From positions 205-64,204 of the forward strand of contig CADAWC010000030.1 in the NCBI GenBank assembly GCA_902791475.1: 64,000 bases of DNA, read 5' to 3'. Positions 43,835 to 46,823 of the stretch are shown in pieces. Each line of letters starts with the position of its first letter. Position 1 is the first letter of the stretch. Position numbers and translations under genes: made by a program. Below the pieces are notes generated by a model. The model was not told where the DNA came from, ran no database searches, and saw only the letters and a list, made by a program, of their open reading frames with translations. This DNA is from Fibrobacter succinogenes. GTDB lineage: Bacteria > Fibrobacterota > Fibrobacteria > Fibrobacterales > Fibrobacteraceae.

Positions 43835-43891
43835 AAAACTACGATAAACGAACTTTTACCGCAAAAATATAACTTTTTTCACCTTATCCCC

Positions 43892-43920
43892 TTTACAATT
43901 GGAATTTTTATTTCTATAAT
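43892..43920 (+). promoter_or_regulatory. Sigma-70-type promoter of tRNA-Gly copy 1
   Basis: TTTACA-17 bp-TATAAT; similar blocks precede copies 2 and 3. Confidence 0.75.
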
Positions 43921-43931
43921 TGGGTCACCTC

Positions 43932-44004
43932 GCGGGAATAGCTCAGTTGGTAGAGCACGACCTTGCCAAGGTCGGGGTCGAGGGTCCGAGTCCCTTTTCC
44001 CGCT
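43932..44004 (+). tRNA. tRNA-Gly(GCC), copy 1, CCA not encoded
   Basis: Cloverleaf GCGGGAA/TTCCCGC acceptor, D-arm GCTC/GAGC, anticodon loop TTGCCAA, T-arm GAGGG-TCCGAGT-CCCTT, U73. Confidence 0.95.
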
Positions 44005-44059
44005 CTAAAATAAAAAGCCTAGCGTCAAGCTAGGCTCTTTTGTTTTATACACAGAATTA

Positions 44060-44227
44060 GACGAGGACCCGAGAAGAGGGGCCGCATAATTTGACTCGTG
44101 GGCGAAGCCCGTGGAGGCAAATTTTGCGCTTGACGCGAACGCAGGGAGCGCAAGCCCGAAGGGTTGGCAAGCAGCCGCGAAGCGGGGACTGATTGCCAAC
44201 AATCCCTTTTCCCGCTCTAAAATAAAA
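44060..44227 (+). repeat. tRNA-associated hairpin element E1 ending in a duplicate of the tRNA 3' end
   Basis: Three C-GAA-G hairpins in longer stems; 44203-44227 is identical to 43991-44015 (25 bp). Confidence 0.8.
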
Positions 44228-44402
44228 GAACCACTTTGAGAGTGGTTCTTTTATTTTTGTGTTGATAAGGGTCGGATGTTCGACCCCTTGGGGGTCGAGG
44301 GAGCGACAAAATTCTTTCGCGGCTCTCAAAAAAAAATTTCACTTTTTTCAGCCATCACCCCTTTATAACTACAAATTTTATTTCTATATATGGGTCACCC
44401 TC

Positions 44403-44475
44403 GCGGGAATAGCTCAGTTGGTAGAGCACGACCTTGCCAAGGTCGGGGTCGAGGGTCCGAGTCCCTTTTCCCGCT
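44403..44475 (+). tRNA. tRNA-Gly(GCC), copy 2
   Basis: Identical 73-nt sequence to copy 1. Confidence 0.95.
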
Positions 44476-44530
44476 CGAAAACAAAGAAGACGTCCTAACG
44501 ACGTCTTTTTTGTTTTATACTGAAATTGAC

Positions 44531-44700
44531 TGGACACGAGACCCCTCGGGGTCGAGGGTGCGACAAAATTCGGCTCATGCACGAAGTGCGAAGAGACGAA
44601 TTTTGCGCTTGACGCGAACGTAGTGAGCGCAAGCCCGAAGGGTCAAAGGCCAGCCGCGAAGCGGGGACTGGACTTTGACATTCCCATTCCCGCTCTAAAA
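44531..44700 (+). repeat. tRNA-associated hairpin element E2 ending in a tRNA 3'-end remnant
   Basis: Starts with TCGGGGTCGAGGGT (14 nt identical to the tRNA variable loop/T-stem), covarying stems vs E1, ends TCCCATTCCCGCTCTAAAA. Confidence 0.8.
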
Positions 44701-44760
44701 AAGAGAACCACCTACAAGGTGGTTTTCTTTTTTTATATCGTCGTAATTTGGACGAGGACC

Positions 44761-44910
44761 CGTTCCCGCCGAAGCATCCATCATCAAGCGAGGTTCAAGA
44801 TTTTCGATTTTGAAGTTCTTCTTGGATCTTGTTTTCGACCTCAGCGCTTTTTTGGCGGTATTTTTGGAGTTTTTAGAGTTCTTGCGGGAGTTGTTGTTCA
44901 TTTTTGACAT
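44761..44910 (-). pseudogene. 5' fragment of a LEPR-XLL-motif secreted protein, truncated at a tRNA-associated element
   Basis: MSKMNNNSRKNSK...KKNFKIENLEPRLMMDASAG; frame then runs into the reverse complement of the element start GGACGAGGACCC. Confidence 0.7.
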
Positions 44911-45024
44911 AGAGATTGCCTTTGACGCACCGATGTGCATCGATTTTTATTAAACTTTTGGATAGGAATTCCCTCCATCGGGAATTCCATAGATAAACTT
45001 TTGGGAAAATTTGTTAGGAGAGAA

Positions 45025-46218
45025 TTACTCCAATTTTACACAGCGAACGGAAGACCCACGAATTTTAGCCGCTTTGTTATTCCTGGTAGGACCATAATCA
45101 CCATCTGATGCAACAAAACCGGAATGAACATGAGAATTTTCTTTCCCTTCGAATTCCTCAGGAAGAAACCAATACTCACCACCTCTTAAATCTTCAAACT
45201 TTCCCTCAGAGGACCTTAATCCAGCACCGGTTAGGGATAAGCCACTATAATTATTCCCCGCAAAGCCATAGGATGAACGAGTCCCCCGAATTCCATACGA
45301 ATTCGTTTCAGCATGCCAAGCGATGTAAAAATCCAGGTCGGTCATCAATCGCCAGCCCTCAGGGCAAATGCCTCGATGATTTTCTTCAATTAAATCAGCA
45401 CAGCTTTCGGTATTGCAACGGCTCGGCAACTGCATCATTTCGGCCCACTGGTAAAGCCCACCAAATTCATCACACTTGGTGGTGTCATTGTTGTAGCAAT
45501 AACGTTCAATCACTTTATCATCTTTTTGGTCTTCTGTACCAAGAACCATCTTGCCGATATTCAAGTTTTCGGCCATAATGGTCACGGAATCCTTTTTACC
45601 TAGATAATCTTCCCCAATAATTTTTATGTAATAGTAACTACGGCCATTGCGCGGGTCGGTAAATTGCTTGTATTTTCCTTCACCACCTACACGCCAATCT
45701 TCAGCCAAGGTTTTTGAATGATCGAAAGGCACATACTCGCTGCTAGAGGAATCGTCATTGCGAGAGCTCGAAGAGCTCGTGGCAATCACCTTACTACTAG
45801 AGGAGGATTGCTTACTGCTACTGCTCAGGATGACGGAAGAAGAAGAAACCGTCTTGACGGAAGACGACGAAGCAATCTTTTGGCTAGAACTTGATGGATC
45901 CCCTTCGCTTCGCTTCGAGGATGACGATAAGGCTTTATTCGAAGATGACGATTTCACGTCATTGCGAGGAGTCGAAGAGGACGAAGCAATCTTTTTACTA
46001 CTACTTGAAAGGCGATTCCCGCTTGAAGCGGGAATGACAGATGAAGAGGACGAAGACGACACATTATCGTCATTCGCGGAAGTACCGCTGTCGCCGCCGC
46101 AGGCGGCAAGGGCTATGGTAAGAAGAAATGTAAGGAAAAATCGTATGGATCCCCTACGCTTCGCTTCGAGGATGACTGGTCGAGAAAGACATTTCGCCGT
46201 TGCTTCAAAATTTCTCAT
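45025..46218 (-). CDS. FISUMP (Fibrobacter succinogenes major paralogous domain) lipoprotein
   Basis: RBS AAGGAG, lipobox LAAC, Ser-rich linker, FTDPRNGRSY, MAENLN, FGGLYQW, RGICPEGWR, SVRCVK. Confidence 0.92.
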   Translation of the reverse strand: MRNFEATAKCLSRPVILEAKRRGSIRFFLTFLLTIALAACGGDSGTSANDDNVSSSSSSSVIPASSGNRLSSSSKKIASSSSTPRNDVKSSSSNKALSSSSKRSEGDPSSSSQKIASSSSVKTVSSSSVILSSSSKQSSSSSKVIATSSSSSRNDDSSSSEYVPFDHSKTLAEDWRVGGEGKYKQFTDPRNGRSYYYIKIIGEDYLGKKDSVTIMAENLNIGKMVLGTEDQKDDKVIERYCYNNDTTKCDEFGGLYQWAEMMQLPSRCNTESCADLIEENHRGICPEGWRLMTDLDFYIAWHAETNSYGIRGTRSSYGFAGNNYSGLSLTGAGLRSSEGKFEDLRGGEYWFLPEEFEGKENSHVHSGFVASDGDYGPTRNNKAAKIRGSSVRCVKLE

Positions 46219-46420
46219 TCTGTACTCCTTTTTCTGCAGCATGTGCTATTTTCACACGCTGCAGACCTCATCCATATACCCAATTGCACGATAAAATAGA
46301 AAAAAGCTACATGTAACAATTCATCCAGTCAAAGAATTATCGCGCATAAAATTTTTTCACTTTTTTCGGCACTCACCCCTTTATAACTACTAATTTTATT
46401 TCTATATATGGGTCACCCTC

Positions 46421-46493
46421 GCGGGAATAGCTCAGTTGGTAGAGCACGACCTTGCCAAGGTCGGGGTCGAGGGTCCGAGTCCCTTTTCCCGGT
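46421..46493 (+). pseudogene. tRNA-Gly(GCC), copy 3, with damaged 3' end (G1:G72)
   Basis: Identical to copies 1-2 up to ...TTTTCCCG, then G instead of C72; downstream terminator 5' arm missing. Confidence 0.75.
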
Positions 46494-46516
46494 TTTCTTT
46501 TTTTATATCGTAATTT

Positions 46517-46775
46517 GGACGAGGACCCGAGAAGAGGGTGCGACTAAACAACGAGATGCACGAAGTGCCTACGAGTTGTTTAGGAATTATCGCGTAGCGA
46601 TAAGCCAGGCGTTACGGGCTGGCGCCTGAAGCCCGTTAGAAGGGGTGATGGAAGACCCGGCGATTAGCCTCAAAATAAGCGACCCCGGAATAAAAGCAAC
46701 CAAGGCGAACGCTGCGAAAATACTTGTATTTTCATAGCTGAGCCGAAGGGCTTTGTACTTGTACAAATCCGGGGT
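46517..46775 (+). repeat. tRNA-associated hairpin element E3 with extended palindromic module
   Basis: GGACGAGGACCC...GAGGGTGCGAC start as in E1/E2; TAAACAAC/GTTGTTTA, GCAC-GAA-GTGC, TTATCGC-GTA-GCGATAA, ACCCCGGA/TCCGGGGT. Confidence 0.7.
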
Positions 46776-46823
46776 GACATTGTGGCCGGGGCTGCAATCA
46801 GGGGGAGGCCTCCCCCATCCAAA

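Follow-up and report, generated by a model that had tools for sequence, protein, structure and literature searches.

The tRNA-Gly(GCC) locus that we analysed, within a 64,000-nucleotide window of a Fibrobacter succinogenes genome, is probably a tandem tRNA array interleaved with RtT-type elements, each of which is built on the tRNA beside it. Covariance-model matches show the Fibrobacter elements to be distant homologues of the RtT repeats of the E. coli tyrT operon. The first-pass annotation of this DNA had rated the locus its leading candidate for an undescribed system; the element class is instead the already known RtT family, that of the tyrT 178-bp repeats. The locus is made up of the following features:

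43856-43931, plus strand: promoter-like block of unit 1, within the 147-nt repeat D1, with TTTACA-17-TATAAT at 43892-43920
43932-44005, plus strand: tRNA-Gly(GCC) copy 1 (66.1 bits)
44016-44045, plus strand: terminator-like hairpin and T run behind tRNA copy 1
44058 (approximate start)-44227, plus strand: E1, a full RtT-like element (67.4 bits)
44219-44257, plus strand: perfect palindrome with 17-nt arms, of the bidirectional terminator type, behind E1 (inverted repeat I1)
44271-44330, plus strand: internally deleted element (repeat D9)
44327-44402, plus strand: promoter-like block of unit 2 (repeat D1)
44403-44476, plus strand: tRNA-Gly(GCC) copy 2 (ARAGORN and Rfam)
44487-44515, plus strand: terminator-like hairpin behind tRNA copy 2
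44528 (approximate start)-44700, plus strand: E2, a full RtT-like element of the 'B' type (61.8 bits)
44695-44940, minus strand: 81-aa ORF, a stub whose N-terminus has a LEPR-XLL motif (NF012209, 20.1 bits; cut-off 17)
44706-44735, plus strand: terminator-like hairpin behind E2
44748-44769, plus strand: element stub with the left arm only, GGACGAGGACCCG joined to TTCCCGC
45025-46242, minus strand: gene for a FISUMP-domain protein of 405 aa (TIGR02145, E = 2.8e-16)
46334-46344, plus strand: GAATTATCGCG, an 11-nt fragment at the right edge of the cargo, compared with the element consensus
46345-46420, plus strand: promoter-like block of unit 3 (repeat D1, 95%)
46421-46493, plus strand: tRNA-Gly(GCC) copy 3, with its 3' end truncated and fused and without a terminator (57.9 bits)
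46513-46606 (approximate end), plus strand: E3, the 5' half of an element with left arm, P1, P2 and P3 (79.4 bits)
46599-46815, plus strand: three unrelated dispersed repeat modules, outside the element family

The three tRNA-Gly(GCC) copies proposed earlier are called by both ARAGORN and Rfam, and each comes with a promoter-like block within repeat D1, a 147-nt stretch of promoter-like region plus tRNA that is present three times at 72-95% identity. The fusion of its 3' end to downstream sequence leaves copy 3 with a G1.G72 mismatch. A related element had been claimed behind each tRNA, and this stands for the full elements E1 and E2, which are 80% alike over 87 nt, but E3 is a 5' half only, followed by dispersed genome repeats whose modules finish in a hairpin common to the end of putP. 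E1 comprises a degenerate antisense arm, P1, P2-P5 and a tail, and the tail (44203-44227) equals the tRNA 3' end plus trailer (43991-44015) at 25/25 bases; the tail of E2 is TTCCCATTCCCGCTC, and its left flank TCGGGGTCGAGGGTGCGA equals tRNA positions 40-58 (17/18). The earlier observations that E1 and E2 finish in a tRNA 3'-end copy, that a partial element begins at 44271 and that a broken one begins at 44748 are all upheld. In the internally deleted element, a 5' part with the tRNA-like GGGGGTCGAGGGAGCGAC reaches the middle of P2 and is then joined to ..GGCTCTC, a junction that is also found in genome G039. From CCCGCCGAAGCATCC on, the sequence is homologous to the region 3' of the tRNA-Pro element in genomes G057 and G160.

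Between units 2 and 3 lie the LEPR-XLL stub and the FISUMP gene, as annotated previously. A short piece similar to the LEPR-XLL stub adjoins the tRNA-Pro element in G160, and the FISUMP protein belongs to a large paralogous family. The cargo is joined to the element stub at a 5-nt microhomology. At its right edge, we infer from the identity of GAATTATCGCG to J23/P3a that these 11 nt are probably an element fragment.

At the start of the element, positions about 72 to 49 of the neighbouring tRNA are repeated in antisense; a short loop that is often GAA and the sense T-stem 5' strand with TTCGA (positions 49-58) come next. A conserved cluster of four hairpins, P2-P5, then splits the T-loop precisely at nucleotides 58 and 59, and the remaining tRNA 3' end (T-stem 3' strand, acceptor 3' strand, discriminator and trailer) completes the element, after which comes the terminator-like palindrome. 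As a single strand, the element is predicted to fold into one long stem of left against right arm, with P2-P5 branching off. This anatomy is the same in six tRNA types and two phyla. The fold of E1 is far beyond chance (z = -6.2 as RNA and -4.8 as DNA). Among 89 distinct copies, compensatory changes occur at 42 of the 46 pairs, and paired cells amount to 89.9%, compared with 72.3% for shuffled controls and 27-43% when the partners are slid; the Gammaproteobacteria set gave the same result in the structure test.

Both arms follow the host tRNA. Aligned to antisense tRNA, the left arm reaches a mean score of 9.8, and shuffles reach 4.9 (p <= 0.01 in 73% of copies); the element tail equals the adjacent tRNA 3' end at up to 19/19 positions in Legionellales, Gammaproteobacteria and E. 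coli, and the T-like parts follow the local tRNA across genera. The tRNA 3'-end copy had been interpreted as the footprint of integration; it is instead a built-in part of RtT-type elements, paired with the antisense copy and conserved from E. coli to Fibrobacter. Almost every hairpin of the cluster is capped by a c(GNA)g triloop or a c(GNNA)g tetraloop, the tetraloops including GTTA and GTCA, which are not of the GNRA type, and G.U pairs make up 1.6% of cells versus 0.95% for A.C when two terminal pairs are set aside. Such loops and the scarcity of G.U pairs are features of stable DNA mini-hairpins (PMC13037366, PMC3201870), and the loop set is unusual for RNA. In DNA, mini-hairpins of the d(GNA) and GCGNAGC kinds have exceptional stability, according to the same two papers.

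The link to E. coli was found with a covariance model (R1) made from six Fibrobacter-genome copies only, which matches E. coli K-12 (L238) at 1873-1970, 1576-1673, 1398-1495 and 1220-1317 with 30-45 bits (E = 2e-8 to 2e-12). At exactly those four places RF00391, the Rfam family for RtT RNA (rttR) and the 178-bp tyrT-tyrV operon repeats of E. coli, scores 133-137 bits, and a mixed model (R2) gives 36-47 bits on all four E. coli tyrT units. On intermediate copies from Gammaproteobacteria RF00391 reaches 35 bits, below its gathering score of 45, and between positions 42000 and 49000 of the window it has no match at E up to 1; the Rfam model misses the Fibrobacter copies. RtT, for which an RNA product is documented in E. 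coli, has been an orphan of the tyrT operon for more than 40 years and is a narrow family in Rfam. The tyrT repeats were reportedly treated by Egan and Landy in 1978, by Rossi et al. in 1981 and by Bosl and Kersten in 1991 (see PMC3318445). A literature search found no paper on tRNA-linked elements in Fibrobacter.

Like RtT, the Fibrobacter elements directly follow a tRNA gene on its own strand, both as tandem repeats and in the gaps between tRNA copies, and each unit finishes in an exact copy of the last ~19 nt of the tRNA. The order of parts is also shared: antisense arm, P1 with GGTTCGA, small hairpins, a CCCGAAGGG hairpin, and ..AATC with the T-stem 3' strand. Unlike RtT, the Fibrobacter elements have a much longer P2 and P5 (the core is about 165 nt versus about 100 nt), carry no tpr-like ORF, and have a terminator-like palindrome behind each tRNA and each element. 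Their tail also lacks CCA, because Fibrobacter tRNA genes do not encode it. The host tRNAs in Fibrobacteraceae are those for Gly, Pro and Ser, whereas the E. coli host is tRNA-Tyr.

The prediction that the elements abut tRNA genes holds almost always. All seven copies in this genome are tRNA-linked and none occurs elsewhere, including at other TTCGA sites, and linkage is seen for 83 of 91 distinct copies in relatives, as well as for 20/28 loci in Legionellales and 14/19 in Gammaproteobacteria. For the comparison with non-autonomous IS200/IS605-type elements (PATE), whose copies are dispersed over many short target sites in genomes with a Y1 transposase, the observation is the tRNA linkage of all seven copies. 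About 95% of Fibrobacter genomes carry elements, which are also found behind tRNA-Arg in 31/206 Legionellales genomes and behind several other tRNAs in 83/400 sampled Gammaproteobacteria genomes. Spacing and orientation are constant, at 50-80 nt behind the tRNA and co-oriented with it, and element loci are syntenic across the Fibrobacteraceae. The set of occupied tRNAs differs among genera, with arms matched to each tRNA. One Legionella copy has no left arm and is seated in the T-loop itself, within the 3' half of a tRNA-Arg. A defence islet of Legionella has elements on both sides and integrase genes in its vicinity, and PF12834/PF12835 integrase genes lie 5-7 kb from one copy.

Several other identities were considered and rejected. 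A tmRNA or permuted tmRNA was suggested by a GGTTCGAC motif and by the lack of a tmRNA in the assembly; neither ARAGORN nor RF00023 recognises the element as one, and 14/16 genomes of the genus have a normal tmRNA. A Gly-specific tRNA-derived RNA is ruled out by elements behind tRNA-Pro(CGG) and tRNA-Ser(CGA) in this genome, and behind Pro(TGG), Arg, Leu, Asp and Tyr tRNAs elsewhere. An origin from phage attP was rejected with 0 matches in viral contigs for two specific element patterns, and an integrase partner of the PF12834/PF12835 type, whose genes lie near the Legionella copy, belongs to a family that is absent from Fibrobacter. The complementarity of lead and tail, which might have been an acceptor-stem (minihelix) fold, is part of the longer antisense copy of the tRNA 3' end. 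The retention of both ends in deleted copies, which might have marked mobile-element termini, is better explained by an upstream terminator and a downstream tRNA promoter that limit deletions.

As had been predicted, neither the number of units nor the content of the locus is constant among Fibrobacter genomes: in G039, G057 and G224, the syntenic hemW-putP loci differ in how many elements they have and of which kinds. Behind the tRNA-Pro element there are 0, 1 or 4 FISUMP genes depending on the species, the tRNA-Gly(CCC) element is broken by a 5.3-kb cluster in this genome, and clusters of FISUMP or secreted-protein genes are found at broken or complete elements of three tRNA loci. The differences between species in the number and completeness of units fit unequal recombination. 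Arrays may grow, shrink and drop pieces through unequal or microhomology recombination, in which either the tail-plus-terminator modules that they share or elements from separate tRNA loci would be the partners. Such recombination would also account for the presence inside the Gly array of a FISUMP/LEPR segment like that behind tRNA-Pro.

An alternative that we regard as unlikely is that the element acts as single-stranded DNA, with a fold-back that rebuilds the duplex T-arm/acceptor segment and holds the hairpin cluster in the T-loop. It could then be a folded recombination or priming site, or its core could be a selfish sequence that inserts 3' of TTCGA in T-loops without target duplication. 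The attP(+) site of CTX phage and the attC sites of integrons are folded single-strand recombination sites, and c(GNA)g fold-backs are found at Streptomyces telomeres and parvovirus ends. Our elements resemble these in that inverted copies in one strand rebuild a duplex chromosomal site, a resemblance only, and in their short clusters of hairpins with C-G-closed GNA loops (for the chemistry, see PMC13037366). They differ in that they are not accompanied by a recombinase, a phage or a linear replicon and that their copies are chromosomal, syntenic and tRNA-linked. The cap loops and the few G.T pairs, in mini-hairpins of a kind that is stable in DNA (PMC13037366, PMC3201870), are consistent with single-strand action, as are the precise core junction (TTCGA/..CA/AT) in six tRNA types, the Legionella copy in its T-loop, the tRNA-matched arms on tRNAs that vary by genus, the presence of elements at variable, island-like spots, and the DNA fold of E1. 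In E. coli, moreover, the tyrT-rttR region has raised exonuclease-resistant 'mobilome' coverage under stress (10.1101/2024.07.17.603846). However, all copies in this genome are tRNA-linked and co-oriented, with none at other TTCGA sites, and synteny across a whole bacterial family points to vertical inheritance. No partner enzyme was found, PF12835 being absent from Fibrobacter (0/41), and the viral contigs gave no matches, while in E. coli the documented product is an RNA.

The first-pass annotation had favoured an integrase-free, tRNA-anchored cassette platform in which a recombinase supplied in trans would take up and release surface-protein genes, a model that we consider highly improbable. 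The part of it that stands is the variable gene content, since unit number and neighbouring genes do vary between species and FISUMP or secreted-protein clusters do occur at the elements of three tRNA loci; the bracketed defence islet of Legionella, with its integrase genes nearby, also agrees with it. Every RtT-type element, however, has the tail copy as a part of its own, matched by an antisense arm, and this holds for the static tyrT repeats of E. coli too. The joint between cargo and stub is a 5-nt microhomology, the far cargo junction has no element-tail repeat, and the cargo carries no att-like repeats, whereas att-site cargo is flanked on both sides by the att core and has a cognate recombinase. 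No recombinase was seen at the inspected Fibrobacter loci, and PF12835, the one recombinase family screened, was over its cut-off in 0/41 Fibrobacter genomes. In Legionella, the island with att-type tRNA halves has its insertion point upstream of the element, to which it is unconnected. CIME-like arrays, which arise by tandem accretion of tRNA-targeting integrative elements and keep att scars, share with our locus the direct repeats of the tRNA 3' end and the variable genes nearby. Unlike them, it has between its repeats a conserved structured module of about 200 nt and not island remnants, its elements have an antisense arm, no integrase is seen, and the cargo is without flanking repeats. It is scarcely credible, finally, that the elements are functionless, decayed relics of tRNA-targeting islands or prophages (attL/attR scars). 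Since tRNA 3' halves that begin near the anticodon loop are classic att footprints, the B-type elements, which retain tRNA positions 40-58, do resemble them. Yet covariation is strong in orthologous copies, across the family and across phyla, spacing behind the tRNA stays within 50-80 nt, Fibrobacter, Legionellales, other Gammaproteobacteria and E. coli have one architecture in common, and viral contigs hold no matches.

Under the reading that we prefer, an array of tRNA genes with RtT-type elements built on them, transcription of the tRNA would by analogy with E. coli include the element, which would then be freed as a stable RNA. Since the element finishes in the 3' end of the tRNA itself, the tRNA 3'-end machinery would produce this terminus as well. 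A strong terminator-like hairpin stands between every Fibrobacter tRNA and the element behind it, and no conserved -35/-10 pair was found ahead of the Fibrobacter elements. With a terminator before the element and no conserved promoter, transcription is not assured, especially for the distal copies of an array.

Simple duplication does not explain the tRNA-matched arms at each new tRNA. It is tempting to speculate, though we hold the idea to be doubtful, that RtT-type elements are pan-bacterial, self-building modules on both strands of the tRNA 3' end, with their core at T-loop position 58/59, that the matched arms come from an undescribed templated mechanism, and that the elements mark tRNA-adjacent sites of gene-cluster turnover. 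Candidates for such a mechanism may be a single-strand DNA element that targets the T-loop, or a fold-back that shows a duplex tRNA gene end to a host enzyme. If this were true, matched arms at ten or more tRNA species would lie beyond simple duplication plus drift, and the elements would flag the turnover of FISUMP genes in Fibrobacter and of defence genes in Legionella.

The homology described here takes RtT from a single-species oddity to a broad, testable class with a shared design, in which sense and antisense copies of the host tRNA 3' part surround a covarying hairpin cluster. The tRNA 3'-end mimic, the anti-tRNA arm and the DNA-type mini-hairpin loops offer handles on function. For genome annotation, RtT-type elements account for recurrent 'tRNA 3'-end duplications' that are otherwise taken as integration scars.

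The array of tRNA-Gly(GCC) genes in the window is flanked by hemW and putP. The first-pass annotation had described it as three tRNA units with hairpin elements and cargo remnants, and this description was correct, as all of its parts could be located in the window:

43932-44005: tRNA-Gly(GCC), copy 1
~44058-44227: E1, the full element behind copy 1
44271-44330: internally deleted element
44403-44476: tRNA-Gly(GCC), copy 2
~44528-44700: E2, the full element behind copy 2
44748-44769: element stub
between units 2 and 3, minus strand: ORF of 81 aa with a LEPR-XLL motif
between units 2 and 3, minus strand: FISUMP gene, 405 aa
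46421-46493: tRNA-Gly(GCC), copy 3
46513 to ~46606: E3, the 5' half of an element only

Each tRNA gene belongs to a repeated block of 147 nt, which also contains promoter-like sequence (TTTACA-17-TATAAT in unit 1), and both tRNA 1 and tRNA 2 are followed by a terminator-like hairpin and then by a structured element of ~165 nt. E1 and E2 are 80% alike over 87 nt, and the last 25 bases of E1 repeat the tRNA 3' end and trailer at 25/25. Copy 3 lacks the last acceptor base and the terminator and continues directly into E3; it is fused to the E3 lead because, by comparison with genome G039, a 33-nt deletion took base 72, the discriminator and half of the terminator. This tRNA, which has G1.G72 (46421-46530 region), could be a pseudogene, or transcription could run on from it into E3. 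Three unrelated dispersed repeats follow E3. The three families at 46599-46815 have copies 93-99% identical elsewhere in the genome (contigs C8, C28, C7, C51, C3, C27, C43, C24 and C81), and in many relatives; these repeats are intergenic modules of REP/MITE-like character and have no relation to the tRNA-linked element.

Seven copies of the element were found in this genome, first with an HMM and then with R1, a covariance model built from an alignment (A4) of six Fibrobacter-genome copies with a structure derived by hand. All seven sit 29-63 nt behind a same-strand tRNA: Gly(GCC) in three cases, Gly(CCC) in two, and Pro(CGG) and Ser(CGA) in one each, the last two ruling out a Gly-specific element. 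In a 296-genome sample of the phylum, R1 recovered 1-10 scored copies in ~93 of the 97 genomes of the genus and further copies in six other genera of the family; outside the family it gave a single weak match. The fetched loci contain 91 distinct copies. A tRNA on the same strand precedes 83 of them (Gly-GCC 42, Gly-CCC 24, Pro-CGG 9, Pro-TGG 4, Ser-CGA 4), and the remainder lie deep in arrays or at contig ends. The proposal that the elements adjoin tRNA genes is thus borne out in this genome and in the fetched loci.

Every copy follows one common plan. In the first hairpin, P1, the 3' strand reproduces the T-stem 5' strand of the neighbouring tRNA together with TTCGA (positions 49-58); B-type elements, E2 among them, extend this match back to position 40. 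Directly after this strand comes a core that starts with C(T/A)AA, ends in ..CA and holds P2 (a long stem), P3, P4 (CCC-GNA-GGG) and P5 (CAG..hairpin..TGACTG). Behind the core the same tRNA resumes with its last T-loop bases, T-stem 3' strand, acceptor 3' strand and discriminator, and then a few bases of its trailer. The stretch ahead of P1, together with the P1 5' strand, is an antisense copy of the same tRNA segment (positions 72 to 49), as when GCGGG--AAGGGTTTCTAAGAACCCTCG is compared with GCGGGAAAAGGGTTTC---GAACCCTCG, the reverse complement; in local alignment to the tRNA this arm scores 9.8 on average, versus 4.9 for shuffles, with p <= 0.01 in 73% of copies. Carrying both antisense and sense copies, the element is therefore a palindrome of the tRNA 3' part, with its hairpin cluster set into the right arm at T-loop position 58/59. 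Even where the local tRNA is unusual, the tRNA-like parts match it; in another genus, for example, the tRNA-Pro has GTGGGTCCGA. Support for the secondary structure is strong: paired cells make up 89.9%, versus 72.3% in shuffles and 27-43% with slid partners, and 42 of 46 pairs show compensatory changes, figures that come from an alignment fitted to the model. Folding of E1 gives z = -6.2 for RNA and z = -4.8 for DNA.

A gapped pattern, scanned against a single genome from each species, gave 36 matches, including 31 in Fibrobacter/Fibrobacterales and 2 in Legionella MAGs, the latter upheld by the covariance model. One Legionella copy lies 77 nt behind tRNA-Arg(ACG) and carries an 18/18 copy of the tRNA 3' end including CCA; another lies directly inside the T-loop of a tRNA-Arg 3' half. 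A second covariance model, R2, was built from alignment A6, in which Fibrobacter copies are joined by one copy from a Fibrobacterales MAG and three from Legionella. It matched in 31 of 206 genomes of Legionellales, mostly behind tRNA-Arg(ACG), and, across the class Gammaproteobacteria, in 83 of 400 genomes sampled evenly. The gammaproteobacterial copies follow Arg, four Ser isoacceptor, Leu, Asp and Pro tRNAs, agree in their tails with the local tRNA at up to 19/19 bases, and also show covariation; the Rfam model of RtT, the repeats of the E. coli tyrT operon (RF00391), gives them 35 bits, below its gathering score of 45. In the tyrT-tyrV-rttR region of E. coli K-12, the Fibrobacter-only R1 has four matches (30-45 bits, E = 2e-8 to 2e-12), R2 scores the same places at 36-47 bits, and all four coincide exactly with RtT units, to which RF00391 gives 133-137 bits. 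These units resemble the Fibrobacter elements, with the same anatomy, an antisense arm (GGGGAAGGGTGAGAACCTTCGA) and a 19-nt tail. We consider it highly probable that the elements belong to the RtT family; the Fibrobacter element is a distant, newly recognised member of this already known kind. Among three loci with RtT-like copies (L223 1796-1899; L226 1332-1502; L220 1340-1501), Rfam AaHKsRNA22 (35.3 bits vs 39.8) overlaps a copy, and sX4 (~44 bits vs 70) spans a tRNA-Ser and spacer just ahead of one; these two families and the RtT-type elements may be related, or may have been confounded with each other.

Comparison of the hemW-putP locus across Fibrobacter showed that unit number and content do differ, as had been anticipated. 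In G039, three tRNAs are accompanied by one partial element, one full element and a stub, and FISUMP is absent; G057 combines three tRNAs with five full elements and several partial ones; in G224 there are five elements and both tRNA bodies are absent, a loss seen in one MAG only, versus 32 normal units. In G224 (L135, G224:C46, 7760-8500) the promoter block is joined directly to CCCTTTTCCCGCTC, and both losses share an identical right breakpoint at the T-loop/T-stem border. Arrays at tRNA-Pro hold 1, 3 or 6 elements with a period of ~200 nt. Deleted copies retain only the stretch between the upstream terminator and the next promoter. Since the repeated unit always includes the tail and a terminator-like palindrome, common to tRNAs and elements, the arrays fit growth and loss by unequal crossing-over, the classical explanation of the E. 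coli tyrT repeats.

Gene content beside the elements is variable. The FISUMP gene is one of a very large set of paralogues, and the window sequence that starts at the stub (CCCGCCGAAGCATCC...) has its homologue immediately behind the tRNA-Pro element of G057 and G160, where four genes (5.3 kb) or one gene (2.3 kb) lie; no such genes were found at the tRNA-Pro site of this genome, G194 or G224. On contig C38 of this genome (15713-20889), a 5.3-kb lineage-specific cluster breaks a tRNA-Gly(CCC) element after P4, by comparison with G057. It encodes a 184-aa Ser-rich, a 1319-aa secreted and a 212-aa lipoprotein-like protein, at least two of them with secretion-type N-termini. A stretch of contig C60 (3622-6760) duplicates the tRNA-Gly(CCC) locus of C38 at ~75% identity and is 100% identical over 3139 nt to a contig in another species' genome (G042:C17); C60 is likely a contaminant. 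Neither ARAGORN nor RF00023 found a tmRNA gene in this assembly; a standard tmRNA is present in 14 of 16 genomes of the genus, and the gene is probably missing from this 95%-complete assembly.

The proposal of an undescribed, integrase-free cassette platform stands as regards variation and tRNA linkage, but not as regards mechanism or novelty, the elements being of the RtT kind. No tail copy was found at the cargo's far junction, a 5-nt microhomology forms the near one in the window, and the Fibrobacter loci that were inspected showed no recombinase. We read the variable cargo as ordinary tRNA-adjacent plasticity rather than a cassette system, probably helped by ectopic recombination between elements. 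In Legionella, the island that bears true att-type tRNA halves has inserted on the upstream side of the element and is independent of it. The Legionella RtT-like elements behind tRNA-Arg(ACG) bracket a small defence islet (L154/L186, G297:C44; L185, G296:C17) with an NB-ARC/TPR STAND NTPase and a HigB/HigA-like pair, and a TOTE-type AEP primase-helicase island is inserted in tRNA-Arg itself. Two PF12834/PF12835 integrase genes lie 5-7 kb from the element in G296; this family was not found in Fibrobacter (PF12835, 0 of 41 genomes over the cut-off).

The elements may act as processed RNA, since in E. coli, as stated where PMC3318445 cites Bosl and Kersten 1991, one of the repeat units encodes rttR, an RNA. 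It is also conceivable, if rather unlikely, that they work as single-strand DNA. A terminator ahead of each Fibrobacter element favours this, as do the loops: almost every hairpin is capped by a c(GNA)g triloop or a c(GNNA)g tetraloop, the non-GNRA GTTA and GTCA among them, a signature of very stable DNA mini-hairpins (PMC13037366, PMC3201870). G.T pairs are rare in the stems, and this scarcity of G.U pairs points the same way; such caps and so few G.T pairs are unusual for RNA. A mobilome preprint (10.1101/2024.07.17.603846) reports, without explanation, that exonuclease-resistant coverage of tyrT-rttR rises under stress.

The interest of the elements, which we still read as probable sources of processed RNA, lies in their newly recognised breadth and in their palindromic, tRNA-matched design. 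Matched arms occur at at least 10 different tRNA species, and their origin is the most interesting question that the elements raise.
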